Origin: Candidatus Nanoarchaeia archaeon
GTDB taxonomy: Archaea; Nanobdellota; Nanobdellia; SCGC-AAA011-G17; JAFCDX01
Direction: 5' to 3'
DNA: 64,000 bases
NCBI GenBank assembly: GCA_028716945.1
Contig: JAQUOT010000001.1
Span: 187,927-251,926, forward strand
Part shown: positions 1-60,961 of the stretch, piece by piece
Position numbering within the stretch: the first letter of the stretch is position 1
Layout of the letters: each line of letters opens with the position of its first letter
Translations under genes and position numbers: made by a program
The notes under the pieces: generated by a model
Database searches by the model: none
The model's input: only the letters and a program-made list of their open reading frames with translations
Told to the model about the DNA's origin: nothing

Positions 1-1146
1 GTGCACAAAAATTCCACTATACGGATTAAAATTTATAATTTGACTATAATAATAATTTCCAGAATTATCACCTGCCTCATCAACCCAAGTTTCTTTTTTT
101 AATAATCTTTTTAATTCTAAAGAAGTAATTGTAGGTTTGATATTAAATAATGATTTTCCAAGAGTTAATTTATTTTGAGGAGTTTCAATTAAATAAGAAT
201 CATCACAAATTTTGTTTCCTGTTTGAACATTATCAAGAGTAGAAATACATTCTACTTTTTTAGTTAAGGTTATACTATTTGTTCCTATATTTAATACTAA
301 TTTTGAATCTATATCTTGTATTGTTGTGGGTACATTTGGTGTAAAAGCTATATTTGAATATTCATCTCCAACACTTAAAATTTTAATATTTATTTTTTTA
401 GTATTCCAATTTACTTTTGTTATCATAAATTTATCCATTTTATTTTCATGACAAGATTCGAAACAAACTCCTACAGGTGTTGAAATAGCTACTCCTTTAC
501 CAGAAGATTCTAATAATGCAGTACAAGAAGTTAGACTTGAAATTTTACAAGCACCATTTTCACAACCATTTGGACAAGTATAATAATCCCAAGCAACATT
601 TCCTCCAGAACAATAAGCTTCTGCTAAACGATTTGGATATAAAATTTGATCAGAACAACCATCATAATAAACTGCTCCCAAAGTATCTTTAACATTTCCA
701 GCAGTAAAATAATCTTTTTCATTATCAGAATCTACACAAGTATTAGCTGCAGATGTTGATAATGTAACACATTTTCCTCCAACACATTTTTTATTATATT
801 GAGAACAATCTACTTCAGCAAAATTAGAATTAATACTTTTACAATACCCTTCTATTAAAATATTGGTGTTATCTCCATATTTACAATAATCCCATCCAGT
901 AGTAGACGTAAATAAATTAGTTCCCAAACCATTTTTTGCATCGATTTTACCTTGAACATCTAAATTCCAATAACTAGAACTAGAACCATCTGATTTTATA
1001 CATGAATAAGTAGAAGCTTCTAAAGTTCTTGTATTATCTGAATTTGTTCCAAATAAATTAGTTAAAAAATTATTTATTGAAAAAGCAAATACAATTGGAG
1101 TTACTAAGATTAATAATAAAGAAAGTACAATCAAGCTCTTTTTCAT
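1..1146 (-). CDS. Secreted cysteine-rich surface protein, partial (C-terminus lies beyond the left window edge)
   Basis: Hand translation of the minus strand from ATG at 1146 stays open to position 1 (382 codons). It has the signal peptide MKKSLIVLSLLLILVTPIVFAF. The first 61 aa are identical to the gene at 1187..3832. It contains the modules GWDYC..IEGYC..C..KCVGGKC and CVDSD..AEAYC..CPNGCENGAC. It is absent from the ORF track because it runs off the edge. Confidence 0.8.
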   Translation of the reverse strand, partial: MKKSLIVLSLLLILVTPIVFAFSINNFLTNLFGTNSDNTRTLEASTYSCIKSDGSSSSYWNLDVQGKIDAKNGLGTNLFTSTTGWDYCKYGDNTNILIEGYCKSINSNFAEVDCSQYNKKCVGGKCVTLSTSAANTCVDSDNEKDYFTAGNVKDTLGAVYYDGCSDQILYPNRLAEAYCSGGNVAWDYYTCPNGCENGACKISSLTSCTALLESSGKGVAISTPVGVCFESCHENKMDKFMITKVNWNTKKINIKILSVGDEYSNIAFTPNVPTTIQDIDSKLVLNIGTNSITLTKKVECISTLDNVQTGNKICDDSYLIETPQNKLTLGKSLFNIKPTITSLELKRLLKKETWVDEAGDNSGNYYYSQIINFNPYSGIFVH

Positions 1147-1186: not shown

Positions 1187-3832
1187 TTATTTTTTAGAAG
1201 AAAGTTCAAGTCTAGCTTTTTGTTGGTTTCTTATTTTTTTGAAAATATAATCTAATTGGTTTTTCTTCCAACCTTTTTTAACCAAAGCATCTTTAATATC
1301 AATTTCAGATTTTTTATCTGCCAATTGTTTTTTAACATATGCTTCTAATTTTATTTCTTGTTCTTTATTTGAAATTGGAGATCCTCTTTTTATTATATAA
1401 TATTGCCAATATATGAAAACTCCAACAATTACAACTACTACAAATAATATTATTAAAATATACCATGGGAAACTTGATCCACAATCGGCCTTACACCATC
1501 CCTCTTCTAATGGATGACATACTCCATCTCCACATTGATATTCTGGTTCTTCAGTTATTTCTGTTTTAGTTGTAATAGAACATTGTTCTGAAGTAGAACT
1601 TAACTGATTTCCTGTGGTTGTATCATAAGTATAAACTGTTCTTGTTCCTATTCCATCTCCTTCGGGATCTATACAATCTCCTAATCTCTGTTCGTAAGAA
1701 CTTTGACTAGCCATAACAGAAGTTATTATACTACAAATTCCACCAATACAACATTTAACTGAATCTGATGAAGCTACAGAAATAAATTGTCCGGTTGTTC
1801 CAGTACATTGTTGATTTTCTAAACATATTTGTCCATCTAAATTATTACAAGTATAATCAGAATAATCTATTGTAAGTTCTTTACATTGCCCAGTACTAAG
1901 ATCTCTTGATTGACAAGACACACATTCTTCATCTTCTAAAGTACAAGTAGTAGTACAACTTGGATCACATGCATCTCCTTTCCCATCATTATCACAATCT
2001 GCTTGATCCTCATTATAAATGTATATGCAATTATCTTCATCATCACAAATTCCATCTTCATCATAATCATCTTCACATTCTAAGCAAGCAGCATTAGATA
2101 CACAAGCACTATCTGCACAATCTGTTAATCCATTACAATTATTATCAATATTATCAGTACAACTAGTTTCTGATTGAGCACAAGAAGAAGGGGTACATCC
2201 TCCATTATTACATCCATACCCATATGTTTGACAATCAACAACTAAAGTCCATACATTATTTTTACATTCTTGTACATTAGTTCCTAAACATCTTAACTGA
2301 TTTTCTTGACAAACAGCAGCTATACAACTTGTAGCAGATGTACAACAATTTAAACAATCACTTACTCCAGTTATAAGACTAGAACATGTTTGTCCAGATG
2401 TACAACAAACACCATTTTTTTGAGCACAAGTTTGTGAATTAGAAGAAGTAGTACCACATTGATTAGCAGTGCCTGCACCACCACAAGTTTCAGCAGCACT
2501 AACATTACAAGTTAATGTCCCTGTTTTAGATAGATTAGTTCCACAATTTGTTGAAACAATTTTATTTCCACAAAACGAACTTAGGTCTGGAGTAAATATA
2601 ATGGGAGTACATCCACTTCCTCCTACGCCTGCAGCACCACTAACAGTACAACTTTTAATTAATGAAAATTGATTAGTACATGCAGCATCTGTACAATATT
2701 GTTGCCCACCTATACCGGGATTAAAAACTTGACAAATAGACCAAGTTGAACAAGTTGATGTTGTACAAACTCCTTTAGATCCACTTCCTCCTGAAGAAGA
2801 AATATTTGAACTATTAATTTTTTTACAAAGGGTACCAATATCTCCTATATCTCCAACATTACATTTTGAATTTGGTACATATGTTGTACAATTATAAGTA
2901 GTATTTACCCACCTTGTTCCTCCACAATAATAAAAATTTCCAGAGGTACATAAATATTTTCCCCTCATACCAGCAGTACAATTTATTCCATTAAAGTTAA
3001 TTTGAGAAGTATCTCCACAAGTTTTAGCAGTAAATACTACTTTATTTGACAAAGCTCCATTCCATACCCAAACAACATATTTTTGTCCAGGTTCTAAAAC
3101 ATAACTTGGAGATAAGGGTTGTACATTTCCAGCTACATCTCCAGAACCGGTTAATTTTATATTAAACTCATTAAGTGTAAAGGTTTCGGTTGCTTTTGAT
3201 GTATCTTTTACTTCTATAGCATAATAGGTTGATGTAGAAGGATCTGCATTACTTATTTCTCCTTTAAAAACATCAATACTATAAGTTCCACTACTAGGAA
3301 CACTTCCACCACTAAAAGTTATATTTACTTTTGATTTAGTTCCTTCACAAGAAGTTGTAATAGTTGAAGATAAAGTTACGGGGGTTATTATACTTCCTGC
3401 TCCACCCGAAGTTGTGGGTGTAACACATTTTCCACTGCTACATATTTTACCATAATCAGAACAATCTATTTTTCCAATATAAAATGAATTTACAGTATTT
3501 CCACAATACCATTCTCCTAAAAGAGTACCTGTAGTATCTTGTCCAATATCTTTAAGACAATAATCAGAACCTACTACTTGGGTTGTAGAGCTAGAACCAA
3601 TCGCAGAAGTAGTTAATGTAATTTTACTAATTTTACCTTGGATATTATAATTCCAATAACTAGAACTAGAACCATCTGATTTTATACATGAATAAGTAGA
3701 AGCTTCTAAAGTTCTTGTATTATCTGAATTTGTTCCAAATAAATTAGTTAAAAAATTATTTATTGAAAAAGCAAATACAATTGGAGTTACTAAGATTAAT
3801 AATAAAGAAAGTACAATCAAGCTCTTTTTCAT
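1187..3832 (-). CDS. Giant cysteine-rich cell-surface protein with a thrombospondin type-3-like Ca-binding repeat, C-terminal TM anchor and cytoplasmic tail
   Basis: Taken from the 896-aa track ORF. I moved the start to MKKSLIV (3832) because that gives a signal peptide identical to the paralog at 1146. The protein has very many Cys and Thr/Ser-rich stretches. It contains DYDEDGICDDEDNCIYIYNEDQADCDNDGKGDACD, which fits the TSP type-3 consensus. It also has the TM segment WYILIILFVVVVIVGVFIYW followed by a basic tail. Confidence 0.85.
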   Translation of the reverse strand: MKKSLIVLSLLLILVTPIVFAFSINNFLTNLFGTNSDNTRTLEASTYSCIKSDGSSSSYWNYNIQGKISKITLTTSAIGSSSTTQVVGSDYCLKDIGQDTTGTLLGEWYCGNTVNSFYIGKIDCSDYGKICSSGKCVTPTTSGGAGSIITPVTLSSTITTSCEGTKSKVNITFSGGSVPSSGTYSIDVFKGEISNADPSTSTYYAIEVKDTSKATETFTLNEFNIKLTGSGDVAGNVQPLSPSYVLEPGQKYVVWVWNGALSNKVVFTAKTCGDTSQINFNGINCTAGMRGKYLCTSGNFYYCGGTRWVNTTYNCTTYVPNSKCNVGDIGDIGTLCKKINSSNISSSGGSGSKGVCTTSTCSTWSICQVFNPGIGGQQYCTDAACTNQFSLIKSCTVSGAAGVGGSGCTPIIFTPDLSSFCGNKIVSTNCGTNLSKTGTLTCNVSAAETCGGAGTANQCGTTSSNSQTCAQKNGVCCTSGQTCSSLITGVSDCLNCCTSATSCIAAVCQENQLRCLGTNVQECKNNVWTLVVDCQTYGYGCNNGGCTPSSCAQSETSCTDNIDNNCNGLTDCADSACVSNAACLECEDDYDEDGICDDEDNCIYIYNEDQADCDNDGKGDACDPSCTTTCTLEDEECVSCQSRDLSTGQCKELTIDYSDYTCNNLDGQICLENQQCTGTTGQFISVASSDSVKCCIGGICSIITSVMASQSSYEQRLGDCIDPEGDGIGTRTVYTYDTTTGNQLSSTSEQCSITTKTEITEEPEYQCGDGVCHPLEEGWCKADCGSSFPWYILIILFVVVVIVGVFIYWQYYIIKRGSPISNKEQEIKLEAYVKKQLADKKSEIDIKDALVKKGWKKNQLDYIFKKIRNQQKARLELSSKK

Positions 3833-3868
3833 ATAAATAATATTAAAATTTATATATTTAAATCTTTT
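3651..3868. repeat. 218-bp exact repeat, copy 2
   Basis: Identical to 965..1182. It covers 36 nt upstream of the ATG at 3832, including the AT-rich TATA-like tttaaatatataaa on the minus strand, plus the first 61 codons. Confidence 0.9.
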
Positions 3869-3873
3869 TATTT

Positions 3874-5895
3874 TCAAAATAAAGGTTTTATTCTGGTTTC
3901 TTTCAAAGCTTCCTTAATTTGTTCCTCTTTCCACCCTTTTATTCTTAAAGAACTTATAATTTGTTCTTTTGGAATACCTTGATTTATTTTAACTTGAATA
4001 TAATTTGATAATCTTGCTAAACTTAATTCTTTTTCAATATCGGATTGTGGCCAACCTGCTCTTTCTAATTCCTCTTTTATATTCTTCAAAGGAACTTTTG
4101 CATTTAAAGATTTTTGAATATATTCTTTCATTTTTTCAACATTAACAGGTCTTACTTTTATTGTAGGTTCTTGTTTTATTTCTTTTACAAAAGTTTGAGG
4201 AGCAACTTCTTTTGGTTGAACTATCGGACTTGATTCTTCAACAACTGCTCTTTTTCTTTGTACATAAGTATAAATTATAATTACTAAAATCATAATGAAA
4301 ACTATTCCAGAAATTAAACTTACTCCAATAAGCACCTTATTTGATTTATTTTCAAGATTAGTGTTAGTACCTAAATTAACATTTGTAGTTGTTCCTGCTA
4401 AAACAGTAGAAGTACAAGAAATAGAACAGCAAATTCCTGATCCCGAATGTAATAAAGTAGAACTACTACAAGTTTGATTACTTCCACAAACATAACCATT
4501 TTCTAAAGAGCAAGAACAATCTGAATCTCCTCCAACGCAAGATATAGAACAACCATCATTTATTCCACAAGTAGAACCAGTACAAGATTCATTAATTGCA
4601 GGTCTTCCTGTTAAAGTTCCACAATTATTTTCATCAATACAAGTTCTTGTTCTTACATTATTAACACAAGAAGTCCAATTTGTACAATTCCAAGTTTCAG
4701 AACAGGAAGAAGTAGAATTTGTAATATTAATTAAGAATAAATTACCAACAACATACAATCCTAAACTATCATTAGCACTAAATCTTATTAAATTGGTTCC
4801 AGTCCAGTTTGCTTTTGGAACAAATTCTGCTTCATCATTAGAATTTATAAAAATAGAAATAGAATTATTTCCGGTGAAATTATAAATTAATTTTTGTCCA
4901 TCTGGTTCTGAGAAATAATCCTCTAATTCTAAACTATCATTGGTATTTTTTCTCCAAGACATATTATCAAAATTATCTTTTAATATAGGAGGAGAATTTA
5001 ACATATCAATACTGCTTGAATTTACATAAGTTCCTTTAATCGTATCGTTAGCACTAATAGTACATGTCCATTCATCTATATGACTTTCAGTTATCTGTAC
5101 AGAAATATTACAAGATTTTCCATTTACCCAAGAATCTCCAGAACAAGATACATCTCCAGATTTAAATGGACTAGCAAAATTAGTTTCATTCCACAAAATG
5201 TATTTAACATTAACAGTACTACTATCCGTATCTTTAACAATAGAAGAACAATTTACATAATCTTTTACTCTAAACTTATTTGAACCAGTTAAATTAGTAA
5301 AAGAAACATCTGTTATTGTAGGAGGATTAGTTGTTACAGGAGCAGAAACTGTAAAACTTTTTGTATCTGAAATTAAAACATCTGCACTGTAATTTAAAAT
5401 GAATTCTAAAGTATAAGTTCCAGCACTTAAGGCAGATAATCCAGAAAAAGCAGATATAGGAGTACTTACAGTAACTTCAGAAAGCGTTGAAAATGCTCTT
5501 CCAGGTTGTTCAGGATTTTCCCAAGCCCAATCAGGACTATCATGACTTCCATCTTTAAAAATTTGACCATCAATACAATTTTTTGGATTTGCATTTGAGT
5601 TAGTTAAAAAATTTTCTAAAGTTAGAGTACTACGTTGTATAACTTGGTCTCCAGAATCTTTTATACCTATATAAACATTTGAAGACCCATTACAAGGAAT
5701 AACATCGCCTGCTAAAAATTTTATTGAAATATCTCCAGTTAATGATTGCCCTGCAGTTATAGTATCTAAATCAATATTATCTTTAACAACGTTTCCAGTA
5801 ATAGATGGCTTCATTAACATAAAAACTAAAAATGAGAATACAAATATTGCAAATATAAAAACGCTCAATTCTCTATCTTTTTTAATATGTACCAC
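3874..5895 (-). CDS. Large surface protein with N-terminal signal anchor, Cys-rich stalk, C-terminal TM and cytoplasmic tail carrying GW helical repeats
   Basis: 673-aa ORF. The N-terminal hydrophobic segment is followed by ITGNVV. A Cys-rich region reads CSETWNCTNWTSCVNNVRTRTCIDENNCG. The TM segment is VLIGVSLISGIVFIMILVIIIYTYV. The tail contains ELERAGWPQSDIEKEL and SSLRIKGWKEEQIKEAL. Confidence 0.8.
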   Translation of the reverse strand: MVHIKKDRELSVFIFAIFVFSFLVFMLMKPSITGNVVKDNIDLDTITAGQSLTGDISIKFLAGDVIPCNGSSNVYIGIKDSGDQVIQRSTLTLENFLTNSNANPKNCIDGQIFKDGSHDSPDWAWENPEQPGRAFSTLSEVTVSTPISAFSGLSALSAGTYTLEFILNYSADVLISDTKSFTVSAPVTTNPPTITDVSFTNLTGSNKFRVKDYVNCSSIVKDTDSSTVNVKYILWNETNFASPFKSGDVSCSGDSWVNGKSCNISVQITESHIDEWTCTISANDTIKGTYVNSSSIDMLNSPPILKDNFDNMSWRKNTNDSLELEDYFSEPDGQKLIYNFTGNNSISIFINSNDEAEFVPKANWTGTNLIRFSANDSLGLYVVGNLFLINITNSTSSCSETWNCTNWTSCVNNVRTRTCIDENNCGTLTGRPAINESCTGSTCGINDGCSISCVGGDSDCSCSLENGYVCGSNQTCSSSTLLHSGSGICCSISCTSTVLAGTTTNVNLGTNTNLENKSNKVLIGVSLISGIVFIMILVIIIYTYVQRKRAVVEESSPIVQPKEVAPQTFVKEIKQEPTIKVRPVNVEKMKEYIQKSLNAKVPLKNIKEELERAGWPQSDIEKELSLARLSNYIQVKINQGIPKEQIISSLRIKGWKEEQIKEALKETRIKPLF

Positions 5896-11721: not shown

Positions 11722-12090
11722 TTACTCTAACCCTTGGTATTCTAAAGATTGTTTTTCGCTTAAACAAGCACCATCAAAACATCCTTCTTCACAATAAACT
11801 ATCATTGTTTGGAAATTAAAAGAATTTGTCGAATCACAATTATACTCTTTTAATCTATTTGCATCTACGCAATAATCTGTTCTTTCACGCAGATTACAAT
11901 CGTCTCCTCTTACTGAAACAGTTCCTTTTAGATTAATACTTCCTTGGTCTGTATCTTTACAAGATTTATCACAACCAACAAGAACATTACTAGTTGTTGT
12001 AAATTGAGTTACTCCCAAAGTTAATAAAAGAATTACTGCTATAAGTAATAAAGCAGATAATAAAACTTCTTTATTAAATTTCTTTGCCAT
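11722..12090 (-). CDS. Small membrane-anchored cysteine-rich protein, paralog 1 of 5
   Basis: 122 aa. N-terminal TM, then CKDTDQG...KGTVSV...TDYC...LKEYNC...YCEEGCFDGAC. Confidence 0.75.
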   Translation of the reverse strand: MAKKFNKEVLLSALLLIAVILLLTLGVTQFTTTSNVLVGCDKSCKDTDQGSINLKGTVSVRGDDCNLRERTDYCVDANRLKEYNCDSTNSFNFQTMIVYCEEGCFDGACLSEKQSLEYQGLE

Positions 12091-12091
12091 T

Positions 12092-12487
12092 TTATTTTAT
12101 GCAAGCTCCATCTTTACAACCTTTTTCACAAATAACCAATTTATCATTATATTCACTATAAGTAAAATCTTGAGAGTTAGAACTTTCTGGATCTGATCCA
12201 CAGAAATATTCTTTTACGGCAGAATATTTATTTTCTTCATTTGGTCCAACCTGTACATAAGCACAATAATCGGTTTTTGCTTCAAAAGCATAGCGTCCTT
12301 TGCTTACCGCAGTTACTGTACCTTTAACAAATTGATTATATCCTCCATCTGTATCATTACAACTTCTTTTTAGAAGAACGTTTCCAGTTGTAAAATTTAT
12401 AAAGCTTAATATAAAAAATGCGCAAACAGATACTATTAAAATTAGAATAATATAATCCCTAACATCCACTTCTTTTTTCTTTTTCAT
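12092..12487 (-). CDS. Small membrane-anchored cysteine-rich protein, paralog 2 of 5
   Basis: 131 aa. TM, then TTGNV, then CNDTDGG...KGTVTA...TDYC...VKEYFC...ICEKGCKDGAC. Confidence 0.75.
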   Translation of the reverse strand: MKKKKEVDVRDYIILILIVSVCAFFILSFINFTTGNVLLKRSCNDTDGGYNQFVKGTVTAVSKGRYAFEAKTDYCAYVQVGPNEENKYSAVKEYFCGSDPESSNSQDFTYSEYNDKLVICEKGCKDGACIK

Positions 12488-12561
12488 ATCTTATTTATAC
12501 ATTTAATTATTTATAAAGATTTCTATATAAATTAAAAAAATAAAAAATAAAAAATTTTAAT

Positions 12562-12891
12562 TTATTGTAAGCATGCTCCGTTTTGACAGCCATTTGCACA
12601 ATAAACTGAAGGATCTCTGTTATATCCGCTTGCATCTGCCACATTACAATTAAATTCTACTAATGTCTTTCCTGTTGAATCATCCATAGAACAATAATCT
12701 GTTTGTGGGTCAAAAGCAGTTCCTCCAGAATCAGTACCTGTTACAGTACCTTGCATGTAAATACTTCCACCATCAGTATCTTGACAAGAAACTTTTATAA
12801 CTTTTCCTGTTGTTAAAATACCTGATGCTAAAAGCACTGCTAAAACGAGCAAAACTACTAATCCGATTATAGTTTTGTCTTTTGTATCCAT
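12562..12891 (-). CDS. Small membrane-anchored cysteine-rich protein, paralog 3 of 5
   Basis: 109 aa. TM, then TTGKV, then CQDTDGG...QGTVTG...TDYC...LVEFNC...YCANGCQNGAC. Confidence 0.75.
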   Translation of the reverse strand: MDTKDKTIIGLVVLLVLAVLLASGILTTGKVIKVSCQDTDGGSIYMQGTVTGTDSGGTAFDPQTDYCSMDDSTGKTLVEFNCNVADASGYNRDPSVYCANGCQNGACLQ

Positions 12892-12931
12892 AATTTAATT
12901 AAGAACAATCTATATTTAAATGTTTCTAAAC

Positions 12932-13267
12932 TTATTCTATGCAAGCGCCGTCTTTACAACCCTTTTCACAAACAACTAATTCAGATTCCCAATTATTTGG
13001 AGTAAGCAAATTACAGTTATATTCTTTTAATTCCTTTGTATTTTCTAAAGAACAATAGTCTGTTTCTTCAAATTGGGCATTGTAATCAGTATATCCTGTT
13101 ACTATTCCTTTTACATAAATACTTCCACTATCTGTATCTTCACAATGTGCTTTAAAACTAAATCCAGTAACTTTCTCAAAAAATCCTGTTGCAAAAAATA
13201 ATAAATATAAAGACAGTATTACAAAAATTACCAATAATTTTCTTGAAAAACCTTCAAATAATTTCAT
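12932..13267 (-). CDS. Small membrane-anchored cysteine-rich protein, paralog 4 of 5
   Basis: Track ORF 12932..13309. I moved the start to MKLFEGF (13267) so that it no longer overlaps paralog 5. The domain reads CEDTDSG...KGIVTG...TDYC...LKEYNC...VCEKGCKDGAC. Confidence 0.7.
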   Translation of the reverse strand: MKLFEGFSRKLLVIFVILSLYLLFFATGFFEKVTGFSFKAHCEDTDSGSIYVKGIVTGYTDYNAQFEETDYCSLENTKELKEYNCNLLTPNNWESELVVCEKGCKDGACIE

Positions 13268-13281
13268 TTTGAAATAAAAAA

Positions 13282-13650
13282 TTATCTCTCGCAAGCCCCG
13301 TTCTTGCAACCATATTCACAAACAATAAATTTATAGGAATATGCGTTTTTGTCTGTTTCTTCTGGGTCAATATCATGCAAACAATAATATTCTTTTAAAA
13401 CATCGGTTTTTTCAGGATTATCTTCATAATATACACAATAGTCTACTTCATTAATCTGTATTTGAGAAGGATATTGGTGTCCTGAAAGCTTTCCTCTAGC
13501 AAATTCATTATCTCCACTATCAGTATCATAACAATAGCCTGCACGCATACTTTGCCCAGTAGTATAATTTATAGTATTATTTAGCACAATTAAAACTGCT
13601 AAAACAACTAAGATTGCAGAACCTATCACCACTTTATCTCTATTATCCAT
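13282..13650 (-). CDS. Small membrane-anchored cysteine-rich protein, paralog 5 of 5
   Basis: 122 aa. TM, then TTGQS, then CYDTDSG...RGKLSG...VDYC...LKEYYC...VCEYGCKNGAC. Confidence 0.75.
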   Translation of the reverse strand: MDNRDKVVIGSAILVVLAVLIVLNNTINYTTGQSMRAGYCYDTDSGDNEFARGKLSGHQYPSQIQINEVDYCVYYEDNPEKTDVLKEYYCLHDIDPEETDKNAYSYKFIVCEYGCKNGACER

Positions 13651-13690
13651 AATAAATATTAAATTTAATGAATATTTAAACTTTTTGTTT

Positions 13691-17188: not shown

Positions 17189-17338
17189 GGAGCGGTAGCT
17201 CAGAAAGGTTTTGAAGTTTAAGACCTTGAGCAACCTGGGAGAGCATAGAAATATCTCAAACCACGCTGAAGCCGTGGATGAAAGGTTATACGTCTAGTAT
17301 ACCTTGCCAAATCGGGGGTTCAAATCCCCCTCGCTCCA
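17189..17338 (+). tRNA. tRNA-Phe (anticodon GAA) with three introns (17204..17233, 17245..17259, 17281..17311)
   Basis: The hand fold gives acceptor GGAGCGG/TCGCTCC plus A73. The D-arm is GCTC-AGCCTGGGA-GAGC after removal of a 30-nt insert. The anticodon arm is CCACG-CTGAAGC-CGTGG, the variable loop ATGTC, and the T-arm GGGGG-TTCAAAT-CCCCC. The spliced product is 74 nt. Each intron is bounded by a BHB-like motif with 3-nt bulges. An AT-rich TATA-like tttaaatatat lies about 30 nt upstream. Confidence 0.85.
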
Positions 17339-18026
17339 TTTTCTTTATATTTTTAATATTAGAACTTCTTATTAATTTAATAAAAGAGGAGGCATTATTA
17401 TAACCGCTTATTTGTATTTTATATTTTTCATACCTTTTATTAGTTCTTTTATCTATATAATTTTCATGTCCTACATAATGATCTATCTTTTGAATTTTAA
17501 TCCAATCAGATATTTTGTATATTAAATTTTTATCTTTTAGACCAAGATTAATAACTGGATAAAATTTATATTTTCCGTGATTCTTTTTTAAACACAAAGA
17601 ACCATCTGTATCAAAAATTCCTTTAATGAATGCTTTAGCATAAATTTTATTATCCCATATCCATCGAGGAACCTTATTTCTATAATTTATTTTTTTATAA
17701 CCTATAATATTAAGAAAAGATAATATCCCTTTAGATCTCTTTGTTAAGATTAAAGTATTAATCTTTTTCTTTTGATATAAATTCATCTTTACATTGAATA
17801 AAAACAAAACTTTATCTTTAATATAGTTTGAATAATTCCTCTCATCTTTGAGATTACTAAAAATAGAAAAAATATAATCATTGCTTCCTAAATTATAATA
17901 AACATGGCCATCTCCAGACAAAATACCTAAAAATTCTGACAAGTCTCTAGAAGAGGATTTAGGAAAAATAATTTTATTCTTAATATCTTGGTGACTTAGT
18001 TGAATATCTGATAAATCAAATTTCAT
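17286..18026 (-). CDS. LAGLIDADG family endonuclease (two-motif, free-standing), paralog A
   Basis: Track ORF 17286..18068. I chose the start MKFDLSD at 18026, matching paralog B. The two motifs are LGILSGDGHV and IKGIFDTDGSL. The last 53 nt are antisense to the tRNA-Phe 3' part. Confidence 0.8.
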   Translation of the reverse strand: MKFDLSDIQLSHQDIKNKIIFPKSSSRDLSEFLGILSGDGHVYYNLGSNDYIFSIFSNLKDERNYSNYIKDKVLFLFNVKMNLYQKKKINTLILTKRSKGILSFLNIIGYKKINYRNKVPRWIWDNKIYAKAFIKGIFDTDGSLCLKKNHGKYKFYPVINLGLKDKNLIYKISDWIKIQKIDHYVGHENYIDKRTNKRYEKYKIQISGYNNASSFIKLIRSSNIKNIKKMERGGFEPPIWQGILDV

Positions 18027-18048
18027 GATTAATAAAAAGCGAATTTGA

Positions 18049-18105
18049 TTTATAAATCTGGCGCGCACCCATCTGCAAGTTGCAATTTGTTAGAATATAT
18101 ATTTT
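18049..18105. repeat. Conserved 57-nt block upstream of LAGLIDADG paralog A (TATA-like box plus GC-rich and palindromic core)
   Basis: The sequence tttataaatctggcgcgcacccatctgcaagttgcaatttgttagaatatatatttt is nearly identical to 63404..63459, apart from a 2-nt indel and a local shift. It contains the palindrome tgcaaGttgca. Confidence 0.85.
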
Positions 18106-18163: not shown

Positions 18164-18676
18164 ATGCAAAATAAAAAAGGTGCAATTGAACTTTCTATGA
18201 CCACTATTATAGTTATTATTCTTGGAGTCACTTTATTGAGTTTAGGATTAATGTTTATTAAAGGAACATTTGGAAACATAACTGATATTACAGACAAAAC
18301 TTTTGATCAAGCTGATGATATAATAAAAGATTATATGGTAACTGGAACAACCAAAATGTACATTCTTGATTCAAACGTAGCAATGAAAGCAGGAACTATA
18401 AATACAATATATGTGGGTATTAAAAATCAACTAGGAAGAGATGATGAATTTTATTTGAAAGCAAAACCTGCAAATGATAAAAGCGATGTAGGTTGGTTAG
18501 AGCTTGCAACAGAACCACAAACTATAGAAGCTGGAAGTTATGCTACAATTGCTTTTTTCCTTAAAGTTCCTAAAAAAACGATTCCTGGAGAAACATATAT
18601 TTATTCTATAGAATCATATGCAAAGAGTCAAACAAAACCTTATGCTAATCAGCTTTTAACAGTTATAACAGAATAA
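18164..18676 (+). CDS. Archaeal type IV pilin-like protein (class III signal peptide)
   Basis: 170 aa. The N-terminus MQNKKGAIELSMTTIIVIILGVTLLSLGLMFI shows a basic-Gly cleavage context followed by a hydrophobic helix, as in archaeal prepilins. Confidence 0.6.
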   Translation: MQNKKGAIELSMTTIIVIILGVTLLSLGLMFIKGTFGNITDITDKTFDQADDIIKDYMVTGTTKMYILDSNVAMKAGTINTIYVGIKNQLGRDDEFYLKAKPANDKSDVGWLELATEPQTIEAGSYATIAFFLKVPKKTIPGETYIYSIESYAKSQTKPYANQLLTVITE

Positions 18677-22701: not shown

Positions 22702-23343
22702 ATGAAAAATATTGGTATAATTCTTACTTTATTAGGAATATTTTTAATTAGTTTAATCTCAGTTAATGCAATTACAGCAACAATACAAGGAAGTGTATAT
22801 GATCTAACTTTAGATAAAGTAAATAATGTAATTCTTGAAATTAATACTATTCCTGAACAAACTTATGTTGCAAAAATAGGAGATTATTCTTTTGAAAGCA
22901 TTCCTGTTGGAGATTATGTTATAAAAGCTTACACCCAAGATAGATCCTTAATAACTACTGAAAATATTACTATAAACCAAGAAGGAACTTACACTATAGA
23001 TTTATTTTTAATACCTGAATTCGAAGAAAAAGAAACCAAATCTACAAATTATCTTTATTATATAATCCCTTTTATATTAATCTTAATTTTAATAGCAATC
23101 ATTTACAAAAGATTAAAAATACCTAAAAAAGTAGAGCTAAAAATTGAAGGGGTAAAAGATGATCTTGAAAAAGTAATTGAAATAATCAAAAAAGAAGGTG
23201 GAAGAACTACTCAAAAGGATATTAGGGAAAAGATAGGCTTGTCTGAAGCCAAGGTAAGCTTAATGATAGTAGAACTAGAAGATAAAGGTATTATAAAAAA
23301 GATTAAAAAAGGAAGAGGCAATATCATCATTTTAAACAAATAA
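22702..23343 (+). CDS. Bitopic membrane protein with an extracellular carboxypeptidase-regulatory-like beta domain and a cytoplasmic winged-helix DNA-binding domain
   Basis: 213 aa. The order is signal peptide, a GSVYD...IPVGDYVIKAY beta-sandwich-like segment, the TM segment YLYYIIPFILILILIAIIY, then GGRTTQKDIREKIGLSEAKVSLMIVELEDKGIIKK. Confidence 0.6.
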   Translation: MKNIGIILTLLGIFLISLISVNAITATIQGSVYDLTLDKVNNVILEINTIPEQTYVAKIGDYSFESIPVGDYVIKAYTQDRSLITTENITINQEGTYTIDLFLIPEFEEKETKSTNYLYYIIPFILILILIAIIYKRLKIPKKVELKIEGVKDDLEKVIEIIKKEGGRTTQKDIREKIGLSEAKVSLMIVELEDKGIIKKIKKGRGNIIILNK

Positions 23344-34546: not shown

Positions 34547-35164
34547 ATGATTTTTAAGGAAATAAAGGCATTAAAAGTCAAAAACATCGAATATTTAGCT
34601 CAAGGAAAGAGATCTATAATATATACTGGAATTTTTAGAAATAAAAAAGTTGCAATTAAAACTGAAAAACCAGGAATAAGCGCTAAAGATAGAATTTTAA
34701 ATGAAGCTAAATTTCTTAAAATAATTAACAAATATAAAATTGGACCAAGATTAATCACTTCTAGAAAAAAATTTATGATCTATGAGTTTGTAAAAGGAAG
34801 ATTTATTCTTGATTCTTTTCCTGAAAAGAGTAAAAAAGAGATTTTAAAACTAATTAAAAACGTTTTAGAGCAATGTTTTATTTTAGATAAATTAAAAATT
34901 AATAAACTTGAAATGCATCATCCCATAAAACACATAATCATCGATAAAAAACCTGTTTTAATAGACTTTGAAAGAAGTTATTTAACAAATAATCCAAAAA
35001 ATGTAACTCAATTCTGCCAGTTTATTATGTCTCATCCTTTGATTGACATTTTAAATAATAAAAAAATAAAAATTGATAGAAATAATTTCATAAATATTGT
35101 AAAAGAATATAAAAGAGATAAAACTAAAAATAATTTAAAAAAAATAAAAAAAGAAATAAATTAA
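34547..35164 (+). CDS. Small atypical protein kinase (Bud32/RIO-like)
   Basis: 205 aa. It has GKRSIIYTG..KKVAIK (Gly-loop plus Lys), EAKFLK and PVLIDFERS (DFG-like). The size fits a minimal kinase fold. Confidence 0.45.
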   Translation: MIFKEIKALKVKNIEYLAQGKRSIIYTGIFRNKKVAIKTEKPGISAKDRILNEAKFLKIINKYKIGPRLITSRKKFMIYEFVKGRFILDSFPEKSKKEILKLIKNVLEQCFILDKLKINKLEMHHPIKHIIIDKKPVLIDFERSYLTNNPKNVTQFCQFIMSHPLIDILNNKKIKIDRNNFINIVKEYKRDKTKNNLKKIKKEIN

Positions 35165-35895
35165 ATTAATCTACATGGCCTATTGCTTCTGTAAAACTGT
35201 CCTTGTGCATTTACACAAACATATGCATTACCGCCATTTGGTTTAGCCAAACTAGTAACTTTTAAACTATTGGTTTCACAAGTATTATCTGCATTACAAG
35301 AATTTGCTCTTACTTCTTCCAAAGTTTCTATATTTGTTGCACCTAACAAACCTTTAATTCCTGAAACGGCTGCATAAACTTCTTCATAAGTTATTAAAGC
35401 GTCCTTATTTGTATCTACAGAATTACAAAAGTCTGAACTAAATCCATACCCAATACAATCCTCTATTGAAATAGATTTTGTATAAGTATTAGAAACTTGT
35501 CCGAGAAGATTATTTGCTGCAGATAAATCAGGAATTTCTAATATTCCGTTTCCATCTGAATCATACAAAGTAATTCCAGCTATCTTACTTTTAATATAGT
35601 CATAAGCATATTGTGCTTCGGCAACAGTAATGTGATTATCATTATTTATATCTACCGAATTACAAAAGTTTAGACTTCTTTTTTCTGCACAATTATTAAC
35701 TAAAATAAATTGTACATTGGTATTATAAACCTGTCCAAGAAGACTAGTTGCTACACTTAAATCTGGAATTTCTAATATTCCGTTTCCATCTGAATCAAAT
35801 GGAACTGCTACTGCTTTTCCAGTATAACTAGCACCTATAATAAAAAGTGCTACCAATACTAAAACAATCGATAAGATTATAGTATTTCTTTCCAA
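35161..35895 (-). CDS. Secreted protein with two dockerin/EF-hand-like Ca-binding repeat pairs
   Basis: 244 aa. DSDGNGILEIPDLS occurs twice, each time followed by VD(I/T)N(N/K)D..IT..E. The internal duplication has a 234-nt period. Confidence 0.6.
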   Translation of the reverse strand: MERNTIILSIVLVLVALFIIGASYTGKAVAVPFDSDGNGILEIPDLSVATSLLGQVYNTNVQFILVNNCAEKRSLNFCNSVDINNDNHITVAEAQYAYDYIKSKIAGITLYDSDGNGILEIPDLSAANNLLGQVSNTYTKSISIEDCIGYGFSSDFCNSVDTNKDALITYEEVYAAVSGIKGLLGATNIETLEEVRANSCNADNTCETNSLKVTSLAKPNGGNAYVCVNAQGQFYRSNRPCRLI

Positions 35896-53328: not shown

Positions 53329-53940
53329 TTGATTGTTTGGAGTTCTATGAAAACAAGGGGTTTAATTATATTTCCAATATTATTAGGATTGGTTTTATTT
53401 ATTTCTGGATGTAATACTATAACTGGAGAAGTTATTGGTTGTGGAGACCATTATTCATTTGTAGCAAATGCTTGTTGTTTAGATCAAAATGCAAATAAAA
53501 TATGTGATAAAGACGAATTTGCAATAAGAGAAGAATGTAGTATTAAAAGTGAATTTAAATGCTTATCTTACCAAGCAACCCCAGATAAAATAACTATAAA
53601 ATTAAAACCTGCTTTAAGTACAACAATTCCAATAGGTGACGGAGAAATAACTGCAGAGATGTTACCTGTTGCTGCTATATCCAAAATAACTCTACCTGAA
53701 GTAGGAATAAATGGTTGTAAAGGAGTTTACATTGATACTGTTGAAAATGGATTCAGAGGAACAGAAGAAAAAACATTTGAAATTCCTTGTGTAAGTGATA
53801 AAGGAGTTATTGATTCTGATATTATAATAGATTTCCTAGTTTACAAACCATCACATGCAAAAGGGCCATCAGCACCAACTTATAATTCTATAACTGCTTC
53901 TGTTAAAGGAACCTTTAGATCTTTAGTTGAAGAAGTTTAA
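53329..53940 (+). CDS. Secreted or lipid-anchored hypothetical protein
   Basis: 203-aa ORF. The likely start is MKTRGLIIFP at 53347. A hydrophobic segment ends in FISGC (lipobox-like), followed by NTITGEVIGC. Confidence 0.6.
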   Translation: MIVWSSMKTRGLIIFPILLGLVLFISGCNTITGEVIGCGDHYSFVANACCLDQNANKICDKDEFAIREECSIKSEFKCLSYQATPDKITIKLKPALSTTIPIGDGEITAEMLPVAAISKITLPEVGINGCKGVYIDTVENGFRGTEEKTFEIPCVSDKGVIDSDIIIDFLVYKPSHAKGPSAPTYNSITASVKGTFRSLVEEV

Positions 53941-60681: not shown

Positions 60682-60786
60682 TTTTTCCTCCTTTTATTGA
60701 GTTATATGAGAGAAATGACTCCCAACCACCTAAGAATCTAAAGGACTTTAGGTTTATAAAGATTTTTATAAGGTTTTAAAAGTATA

Positions 60787-60882
60787 TGAGCCCGCGGAGA
60801 TTTGAACTCCGGGCCCCCACCAATGATTTGGTTTAAATCCAATTTATCAGAGTGGTGCGCTACCAGGCTGCGCCACGGGCTC
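60787..60882 (-). tRNA. tRNA-Ile (anticodon GAT) with a 22-nt anticodon-loop intron (60822..60843)
   Basis: Read on the minus strand, the acceptor is GAGCCCG/CGGGCTC plus A73. The D-arm is GCGC-AGCCTGGTA-GCGC, the anticodon arm CCACT-CTGATAA-GGTGG after splicing, and the T-arm CGGAG-TTCAAAT-CTCCG. The BHB is TGAT|AAA|TTGG...CCAA|ATCA|TTG. The mature product is 74 nt. Confidence 0.85.
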
Positions 60883-60961
60883 ATGAGATATATTGTTAAA
60901 AGATAATTTATAAGGTTTTTGAATTGATAAAGTTTAAATAATATTAAATTTTAACTATCCT

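Follow-up and report, generated by a model that had tools for sequence, protein, structure and literature searches.

Five tandem genes of a Candidatus Nanoarchaeia archaeon encode single-module members of a large, unnamed DPANN/CPR domain family

Five consecutive minus-strand genes in a Candidatus Nanoarchaeia (DPANN) MAG encode "mini" forms of a large DPANN/CPR domain family that has no name as yet. The genes lie at positions 11722 to 13650 of the 64,000-nucleotide stretch of DNA that we analyzed (the window), and their ORFs confirm the original prediction of five tandem paralogs of 109 to 131 amino acids (aa) that share one architecture. At the N terminus of each mini-protein, a hydrophobic helix is joined by a short flexible linker to a single Cys-rich module of 66 to 87 aa. 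Taken by itself, the array is a modest and ordinary case of tandem duplication within the module family.

Two profiles were used to recognize the modules. An HMM built from the five array modules and run against all window ORFs scores its own modules at E = 1e-29 to 5e-33, while noise begins at about E = 0.1, and the similarity of the modules is therefore far beyond chance. A family-wide HMM, trained on units from other organisms, also matches all five mini-proteins (E = 7e-19 to 4e-14, HMM positions 1-65/66). The five-protein alignment contains 18 invariant columns, among them six Cys, D-T-D-x-G, D-Y-C, E, and G-C-x-x-G-A-C. The Cys residues occupy family-profile positions 1, 32, 44, 59, 63, and 68 and are present in 5 of 5 mini-proteins. 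The original prediction depended on conservation of this Cys framework outside the genome, and the framework is indeed retained: all six Cys are kept in 853 of 928 family units (92%), and 7,123 protein clusters match the family. Conservation of non-Cys positions is similarly high in the family (D/E3, 100%; D5, 97%; G14, 95%; D30, 98%; E41, 97%; G66, 97%), and the same six positions are invariant across the five mini-proteins. The resulting family signature is C-x-[DE]-[ST]-D-G-G ... G ... D-x-C ... [LV]-x-E-x-x-C ... C-x-x-G-C-x-x-G-x-C. The family module spans about 66 aa, and the 66-87-aa range in the array bears out the predicted variation in loop length between the conserved Cys.

All coordinates given here refer to features on the minus strand. 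Gene 1 (11722..12090; PHD81_01060) encodes 122 aa, and its 66-aa module (11764..11961, aa 44-109; family HMM E = 2e-17) carries one extra loop Cys and is followed by a 13-aa C-terminal tail. Gene 2 (12092..12487; PHD81_01065; 131 aa) has an 87-aa module (12101..12361, aa 43-129) with the longest loops of the five. The HMM-matched modules of the other three genes measure 72 aa in gene 3 (12562..12891; PHD81_01070; 109 aa; module at 12571..12786, aa 36-107), 68 aa in gene 4 (12932..13267; 111 aa; module at 12941..13144), and 81 aa in gene 5 (13282..13650; PHD81_01080; 122 aa; module at 13291..13533). The start of gene 4 is most likely the ATG at 13267, 14 nt past the stop of gene 5; the mechanical ORF reaches a TTG at 13309, but a start there would overlap gene 5. 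The sister-strain ortholog of gene 4 begins at the same Met (MKLFEGF).

Gene 1 starts 1 nt past the stop of gene 2, and because of this spacing the two are probably co-transcribed. Upstream of genes 5, 3, and 2, the likeness to the general archaeal TATA consensus suggests putative promoters. A TATA-like element of archaeal type, TTTAAATA, lies 22 nt upstream of the gene 5 ATG (13673..13680) and may drive a transcript with a short leader or none at all. The same element, TTTAAATA, is found 21 nt upstream of the gene 3 ATG (12913..12920), and TTTATAAA is found 22 nt upstream of the gene 2 ATG (12510..12517); both are putative promoter elements. Oligo-T tracts just past the gene 3 stop (12534..12554) resemble an archaeal terminator.

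Because the module normally occurs in tandem within one polypeptide, and because the five ORFs lie head to tail on one strand, they could be read as pseudogene pieces of a decayed multi-repeat surface-protein gene. We give this reading almost no credence, and consider it effectively refuted. In every ORF a separate Met, a charged n-region, and a hydrophobic helix precede the module, the AT-rich intergenic spacers carry the TATA-like boxes, the gene boundaries are conserved in the sister strain under purifying selection, and distant genomes show this architecture again. Given their own starts and hydrophobic N termini, the TATA-like boxes, and sister-strain synteny under dN/dS ratios of 0.18 to 0.43, we conclude that the five are separate, functional, tandemly duplicated genes.

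Beyond the array, an exhaustive profile search recovered the module in the 7,123 protein clusters at E ≤ 1e-3, and in 2,275 clusters at E ≤ 1e-10. Large proteins string together 2 to 25 modules; often there are 4 to 25 tandem copies, in proteins of up to 3,760 aa. Among 120 genome loci sampled with a three-motif degenerate DNA pattern, 75 are labeled DPANN and 16 CPR. Tandem arrays of mini-proteins also occur elsewhere in DPANN (five genes at locus L090, three at L016, and two at L094), additional single-module proteins of 78 to 140 aa are encoded in other genomes, and gene 1 has relatives in other organisms at 47-57% identity. Neighboring genes, both here and at other loci, are unrelated housekeeping genes only; no conserved partner suggests a pathway, which counts against the functional proposal made below.

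The module is exported, as a rule behind an N-terminal signal or anchor segment: a hydrophobic N terminus precedes it in 113 of 150 module ORFs of the sampled loci and in 116 of the 150 best profile matches. Its partner domains include CARDB, PKD, PA14, Laminin_G_3, CBM96, beta-helix, S_layer_C, SLH, and dockerin, as well as a subtilase with FG-GAP and an embedded GILT/DsbA thiol oxidoreductase; one partner protein has a MopE-type metal-binding motif.

Large surface proteins of the window itself were also predicted to contain the module, and this holds with the family-wide HMM. A truncated ORF (1-1146), part of a large secreted protein whose gene is cut off by the start of the window, carries a first, degenerate copy (766..1002; CIKSDGSSS...CVGGKC; E = 1e-5) and a second copy (547..738; CVDSDNEKDY...CPNGCENGAC; E = 9e-17). 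The adjoining 881-aa surface protein (ATG 3832, stop 1187; the 896-aa ORF of the original prediction), which has a C-terminal TM segment, carries a single degenerate copy at its N terminus (3422..3688; E = 1.6e-4). The HMM built from the array supports this part of the prediction less well, since it gives a weak match (E = 0.003) and misses the 896-aa protein. The family-wide HMM finds no module in a 673-aa protein of the window.

The original prediction could not name the domain, and neither could we. An AlphaFold2 (AF2) model of the gene 1 module is confident (pLDDT 95.6) and all-beta, with five strands and a C-terminal hairpin. Fold searches of the PDB and BFVD with this model, which had been proposed as a check together with the HMM search, returned no match (best BFVD E = 1.6). 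Pfam had no match to the five mini-proteins (E ≤ 10) or to 38 isolated units (E ≤ 1), and nothing recurrent was found in 18 multi-repeat relatives; NCBIfam likewise gave nothing recurrent for the module in mini-proteins and relatives. A sub-threshold match to DUF6120 in one relative (P0043) did not recur in the scan of the 38 units and was dismissed. Phage and defense families were rejected on the lack of any PHROGs match at E ≤ 0.1 and on the same BFVD result. PDB sequence-profile searches returned either nothing or CCP at E = 4.3, and our literature search found no description of the module.

By an analogy of principle, the module is comparable to the eukaryotic calcium-binding EGF (cbEGF) and LDL receptor class A (LDL-A) domains, which also have six conserved Cys with an acidic cluster near one end, the Ca2+ site of the module being putative. 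Like the module, these domains are extracellular, occur singly or as long tandem strings in which the linkers are very short, and have variable loops between fixed Cys. EGF-like domains have a fold of about 40 aa with C1-C3, C2-C4, and C5-C6 pairing, and LDL-A domains have a D-x-S-D-E acidic cluster within about 40 aa. Assignment to EGF_CA or EGF-like families was rejected, as neither the Pfam scans at the above thresholds nor the fold searches matched them, and no match to Pfam Ldl_recept_a was found. Thrombospondin type 3 repeats (D-x-D-x-D-G-x-x-D-x-x-D) were excluded as well: there was no Pfam TSP_3 match, and the motif of the module is D-[ST]-D-G-G. Sushi/CCP, the sole PDB sequence found by the family profile, shares with the module a beta architecture, a size of about 60 aa, conserved Cys, and a "V-E-Y-x-C" strand, but assignment to it would take four Cys together with a conserved Trp and a profile or fold match of significance, a combination that the module lacks. 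CARDB, PKD, and Big (Ig-like/beta-sandwich) repeats are, like the module, all-beta stalk units of giant prokaryotic surface or adhesin proteins, and such repeats co-occur with it in the same proteins. We also count CBM14/Avr4-type small disulfide-rich chitin-binding effectors among the closest known systems.

Conservation of the six Cys and export of the module suggest that the Cys would form three disulfides. Six invariant Cys and four acidic residues could instead coordinate a transition metal (Zn, Fe, or Cu) in a metal-binding or redox domain, in line with the MopE-type motif in a partner protein and with the proposal that small Cys-rich archaeal "dark" domains are zinc binders (PMC13607799). 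This alternative is very unlikely in our judgment, and we reject a cytoplasmic metal-binding role. The module is exported, its Cys number is even in 92% of units, with extra Cys paired (6, 8, or 10 per unit), and it keeps company with extracellular partner domains and an embedded thiol oxidoreductase. Moreover, the conservation profile of family units shows no conserved His, and the beta fold is modeled confidently without metal. Conservation further suggests that the four invariant acidic residues, together with N/D at position 9, may form a Ca2+ site near the N-terminal junction. In a mean-field DCA of 997 units, which is dominated by local and gap artifacts, weak couplings of residues 8-12 to 41-43 and 60-64 lend weak support to such an acidic cluster. 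The acidic motif, D-x-D-G-G, differs from the canonical DxDxDG loop, which counts against a Ca2+ site.

The great differences in loop length and sequence among the paralogs had been read as the mark of an ectodomain family that is hypervariable, diversifies under positive selection, and acts in host interaction or as receptor decoys. DPANN are mostly episymbionts, which makes surface proteins plausible host-contact factors. Consistent with such a reading, nonsynonymous rates of the mini-protein genes are 2 to 7 times those of the neighboring housekeeping genes, and loop indels separate the strains; the gene 5 ortholog has an 8-aa loop insertion bearing 2 extra Cys. The dN/dS ratios, calculated for four genes and their syntenic orthologs in one strain pair, nevertheless speak against it. 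Gene-wide values against the sister strain range from 0.18 to 0.43 (dS of about 0.35-0.57): 0.19 in gene 1, whose ortholog is 84% identical, 0.20 in gene 2, 0.43 in gene 4, and 0.18 in gene 5. Every gene thus remains below 0.45, and in pooled data the loops (0.21) do not exceed the framework (0.29); the signal region is at 0.24. In addition, the paralogs are old (30-48% pairwise identity), gene 1 has the relatives in other organisms mentioned above, and there is no diversity-generating element near the array and no DNA-level repeat beyond the conserved motifs. Judging from these ratios, selection on the mini-proteins is purifying rather than diversifying, if less stringent than on aRF1 (0.06) and ValRS (0.11), and the loop differences between paralogs reflect old divergence and indels. 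The "hypervariable" part of the original prediction is therefore not upheld, and we regard the diversifying reading as improbable.

The hydrophobic helix may anchor the module or be cleaved. The hydrophobic segments of the mini-proteins are 17 to 21 uninterrupted residues long, enough to span a membrane. Past this region, four of the five mini-proteins, and mini-proteins of other genomes, carry x-[TI]-T-G-[NKQF]; gene 1 has TTTS in place of TTG. An archaeal class III (pilin/archaellin-type) signal, which has a [KR]-G cleavage motif before the hydrophobic stretch, was rejected, as the conserved T-G comes after it. Signal peptidase I follows the -3/-1 rule. The T-T-G motif fits this rule, and in the full-length AF2 model of gene 3 (helix 3-24, module 35-109) it sits in the low-confidence linker (residues 25-34, pLDDT of about 61), so release of the module would be just as conceivable. 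The helix would then be a Sec signal peptide cut after T-T-G, and the products would be free 7-10-kDa disulfide-rich proteins, for example effectors, inhibitors, or toxins acting on a host or competitor. The hydrophobic regions of the window's classical signal peptides are long as well (14-20 aa), so that the length of the segments is no argument for an anchor. In a bacterial mini-protein (locus L104), a classical signal peptide ends right at the first Cys. Against secretion stand the TTTS of gene 1, the membrane-spanning length of the segments, the presence of the TG-type N terminus on the 673-aa protein, which also has a C-terminal TM segment, and the absence of toxin or inhibitor family matches in the Pfam, NCBIfam, and PHROGs scans. 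We consider free secretion possible but rather doubtful.

With reasonable though not strong confidence, we propose that the mini-proteins are single-module versions of an undescribed disulfide-stabilized, possibly Ca2+-binding envelope or adhesion module. Disulfides and Ca2+ would together yield a rigid, protease-resistant bead, similar to cbEGF or LDL-A. An N-in hydrophobic helix and a floppy linker of about 10 residues would hold this bead on the outer side of the membrane, or hand it over for release. A binding surface would come from the variable loops that separate the fixed Cys, with purifying selection keeping the framework. Most likely, then, the mini-proteins help to build the envelope of the episymbiont or serve in adhesion at its cell surface, either as short membrane-proximal pegs or as docking partners of other surface components. 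We consider this role more likely than a hypervariable decoy system. As a point against our reading, an anchored module on a tether of about 10 residues would sit beneath the large surface proteins, a poor fit to direct host contact. As a more daring and, in our view, unlikely extension, the module may be an undescribed fold and family that marks the surface of both episymbiotic radiations and has been exchanged between domains of life. It would then be a rigid, Ca2+/disulfide-locked block of the host-attachment apparatus, with membrane-proximal mini-proteins as docking sites or short-range receptors that pair homotypically with the module on giant adhesins, in a cohesin-dockerin-like manner.

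DPANN and CPR, most of which live attached to other cells, account for a large part of microbial diversity, and their surface molecules are largely unannotated. The module occurs in thousands of clusters, including many of the largest DPANN and CPR proteins, yet Pfam, NCBIfam, and fold searches based on the PDB all miss it. A definition of the module would allow a considerable part of the "hypothetical" surface proteome to be annotated and would provide a marker of exported proteins in both groups. It is also a small, confidently modeled target for structural and binding studies, and its presence in both DPANN and CPR poses the question, open to testing, of whether it was transferred between domains of life.

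Five related genes lie in tandem on the minus strand at 11722-13650, as the original prediction had stated, with open reading frames (ORFs) read at 11722-12090 (gene 1), 12092-12487 (gene 2), 12562-12891 (gene 3), 12932-13309 (gene 4), and 13282-13650 (gene 5). Each ORF begins with a few charged residues and 17 to 21 uninterrupted hydrophobic residues, followed by a short polar linker, which carries x-T-T-G-x in most of the five, and a Cys-rich domain of 66 to 87 aa, hereafter the module. Alignment of these small proteins (minis) retains 18 invariant columns (the six Cys, D-T-D-x-G, G, D-Y-C, E, and G-C-x-x-G-A-C). Because an HMM of the five domains recovers the minis at E = 1e-29 to 5e-33, versus about 0.1 for the first unrelated ORFs of the window, their kinship is judged to be real and beyond chance. 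Repeats at the DNA level are confined to the conserved motifs (60-88% identity) and amino acid identity between paralogs is 30-48%; the paralogs are old, and reflect neither a recent duplication nor an assembly artefact.

The most likely start of gene 4 is the ATG at 13267, giving a 111-aa product, and its ortholog in a sister strain has the same initial Met. In the sequence, genes 5, 3, and 2 each have a TATA-like octamer (TTTAAATA or TTTATAAA) 21-22 nt ahead of the ATG, while genes 4 and 1 begin 14 nt and 1 nt, respectively, after the gene upstream of each. Under the general archaeal promoter consensus, this arrangement suggests three transcription units (5-4, 3, and 2-1). The encoded proteins are identical to PHD81_01060-01080 on a 536-kb contig of a 'Candidatus Nanoarchaeia archaeon' MAG, and the locus is also present in a second assembly. 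The array is flanked by housekeeping genes unrelated to it, with aRF1 and ValRS on the upstream side and ScpB, a 7-TM protein, a GT2 glycosyltransferase, and AMMECR1 on the downstream side. The window has a GC content of about 27%. N-glycosylation sequons are found in linkers outside the hydrophobic helix (NNT and NYT in gene 5, 13560-13575; NFT in gene 2, 12395-12403), and the GT2 glycosyltransferase and the 7-TM protein, which is of unknown family, lie 2.5-4 kb downstream.

Three other features of the window were recorded. A 260-aa ORF adjoining ValRS (17286-18068, minus strand) has a sub-threshold LAGLIDADG_3 match (E = 7e-4, 20.2 bits, cutoff 22.5) and may be a degenerate homing-endonuclease-like protein. 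The tRNA-Ile(GAT) at 60786-60883 (minus strand) probably carries an archaeal intron, because the 98-nt call exceeds a standard tRNA by about 25 nt. A possible membrane-spanning transcription regulator of 213 aa is encoded at 22702-23343 (plus strand): its N-terminal signal is followed by a CarboxypepD_reg-like beta domain and a second hydrophobic segment, and its C-terminus is a winged-helix DNA-binding domain (DUF7343/HTH_24).

The original prediction could not name the domain, and neither could we: Pfam-A (2025), NCBIfam (2026), and PHROGs gave no match to the five minis or to the repeats of 18 multi-repeat relatives, and nothing recurrent for 38 isolated units. Profile searches of PDB sequences returned nothing or a non-significant CCP match (E = 4.3), and full-text literature searches found no description of the module. 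Membership of the minis in the EGF, LDL-A, TSP3, CCP, and pilin families was tested and rejected; the module is like cbEGF and LDL-A in its working principle alone. Within the databases and literature searched, the module is thus unnamed and has no solved structural relative. The AlphaFold run that had been proposed for the domain produced, for the gene 1 module with a 15-sequence alignment, a confident all-beta model of five strands and a C-terminal hairpin (pLDDT 95.6, pTM 0.81).

The proposed HMM search beyond this genome revealed a very large family. An exhaustive HMMER scan, covering 1.84 billion representative proteins, identified 7,123 clusters with the module at E <= 1e-3, 2,275 at E <= 1e-10, and 228 at E <= 1e-30; the best proteins are 328-3,760 aa long, with 3-25 matched stretches each. 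Among the 910 full-length units of the 150 best proteins (median 66 aa, range 56-94), 816 have exactly six Cys. Extra Cys come in pairs, because the remaining units mostly have 8 or 10. The Cys columns are conserved at 93-100% (C59 93%; C1, C32, C44, C63, and C68 100%), as are D/E3 (100%), D5 (97%), G14 (95%), D30 (98%), E41 (97%), and G66 (97%), in the consensus CTDSDGGKNYYVKGTVTGTSGSKSTTYTDYCSDSNTLREYYCSSGNSVKSETYTCPNGCSDGACVK. A degenerate DNA pattern over three motifs, searched in 185,579 GTDB species genomes, yielded at least 120 loci, and an HMM confirmed a module ORF in all 120 of those listed; as the pattern demanded a TGT codon and Thr at position 2, these loci are a sample, not a census. 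By record title, among the 120 loci listed, 75 belong to DPANN (Woese-, Pace-, Nano-, Micr-, Aenigmat-, Iain-, and Undinarchaeota), 12 to unspecified archaea, 8 to 'Methanosarcinales' (a tentative automated label), 16 to CPR/Patescibacteria (Uhr-, Buchanan-, Peri-, and Saccharibacteria, Paceibacter, Parcubacteria), and 9 to other or unspecified bacteria. Among the named members of the clusters are a Nanoarchaeia protein and a Peribacteraceae protein in which modules precede SLH domains. Each mini is a one-module member of this unnamed family of exported six-Cys beta modules, which is typical of DPANN archaea and CPR bacteria.

That the module is exported is well supported, because a hydrophobic N-terminus is present in 116 of the 150 top proteins of the scan and in 113 of 150 module ORFs among the loci listed, and because the partner domains are extracellular. 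The non-module parts of the large proteins include CARDB, PKD, DUF11, PA14, Laminin_G_3, CBM96, beta-helix/NosD, archaeal S_layer_C, SLH, and dockerin; other partners are a subtilase with FG-GAP, MopE motifs, and an embedded GILT/DsbA-like thiol oxidoreductase. The last occupies residues 883-1035 of a giant surface protein (P0122, 1,937 aa) that also carries six-Cys modules, CARDB, beta-helix, CBM96, and Laminin_G_3, and may be a built-in disulfide-forming catalyst. From the even, paired Cys counts and the exported location, we infer three disulfides per module. We also hypothesize a Ca2+ site, given four invariant acidic residues and an N/D at position 9 (80% of units); residues 8-12 are weakly coupled with 41-43 and 60-64. 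A 244-aa exported protein of the window (35161-35895, minus strand) joins a TG-type N-terminus to EF-hand-type Ca2+-binding loops (Pfam EF-hand_1/6/7, E = 1e-7), so extracellular Ca2+-binding motifs do occur in this organism.

The claim that the module also occurs inside the large proteins of the window held for two of the three. The five-gene HMM gave a weak link (E = 0.003), and a family HMM of 1,040 units from other organisms detected the module twice in the truncated ORF at 1-1146 (E = 9e-17 and 1e-5) and once, in degenerate form, at the N-terminus of the 881-aa protein (1187-3832; E = 1.6e-4), but not in the 673-aa protein. The two adjacent genes that start at ATG 1146 and ATG 3832 are 100% identical over a block of about 220 nt (961-1181 and 3647-3867, minus strand), which extends from -35 (TATA-like GATTTAAATATA) through the signal peptide and first 60 codons. 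Beyond it the genes diverge abruptly, with 63% amino acid identity over the first module. The block suggests either that gene conversion took place recently or that the two genes share a 5' expression cassette.

Proteins of 78-152 aa with a single module are common, and tandem arrays of five, three, and two occur at loci L090, L016, and L094. Each array is set among unrelated genes, an arrangement that suggests local tandem duplication on repeated occasions and not a conserved operon. In the full-length AlphaFold2 model of gene 3, a helix (3-24) and a linker holding T-T-G (25-34, pLDDT about 61) precede the module. T-G is the most frequent dipeptide directly behind the N-terminal hydrophobic segment (50 of 281 ORFs of fetched loci L004-L123, mostly DPANN), in the form x-[IT]-T-G-[NKQF]-[AV], and it recurs on other exported proteins of the window (3874-5895 and 35161-35895, minus strand; 53329-53940, plus strand). 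The motif is general, and marks a second class of export signal beside the classical VxA-type signal peptides of this genome. A post-helix T-G fits the -3/-1 rule of signal peptidase I. The N-terminus of the protein at 18164-18676 (plus strand; MQNKKGAIELSMTTIIVIILGV), which has no Pfam match, shows by eye a K-G motif ahead of a hydrophobic stretch and resembles the class III (type IV pilin-like) signals of archaea.

The proposal that the loops are hypervariable and diversifying was not supported by comparison with syntenic orthologs from the sister strain (L124, L125; Nei-Gojobori method). Gene-wide dN/dS is 0.18 for gene 5, 0.43 for gene 4, 0.20 for gene 2, and 0.19 for gene 1, versus 0.057 for aRF1 and 0.11 for the ValRS C-terminus. 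When these four minis are pooled, the signal region has a dN/dS of 0.24, the framework 0.29, and the loops 0.21. In this one strain pair, selection on the minis is estimated to be purifying, with no replacement excess in the loops, although the minis change more quickly than the adjacent housekeeping genes, and their loops gain or lose residues. In the gene 5 ortholog (L124, 1779-2171), the loop that joins the third framework Cys to the fourth carries an 8-aa insertion that includes two additional Cys (SENCLDNNPETEC), so that closely related strains differ by a probable extra disulfide, gained in this ortholog.

The best-supported mechanism is that the module acts as a disulfide-locked bead, possibly stabilised by Ca2+, in a structural or adhesive role. 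The minis would display this bead at the outer face of the membrane, or release it from there; giant surface proteins string the same bead together in their stalks. The module represents a new family of a familiar kind, the Cys-rich extracellular repeat module, and the family is of greater importance than this five-gene array.
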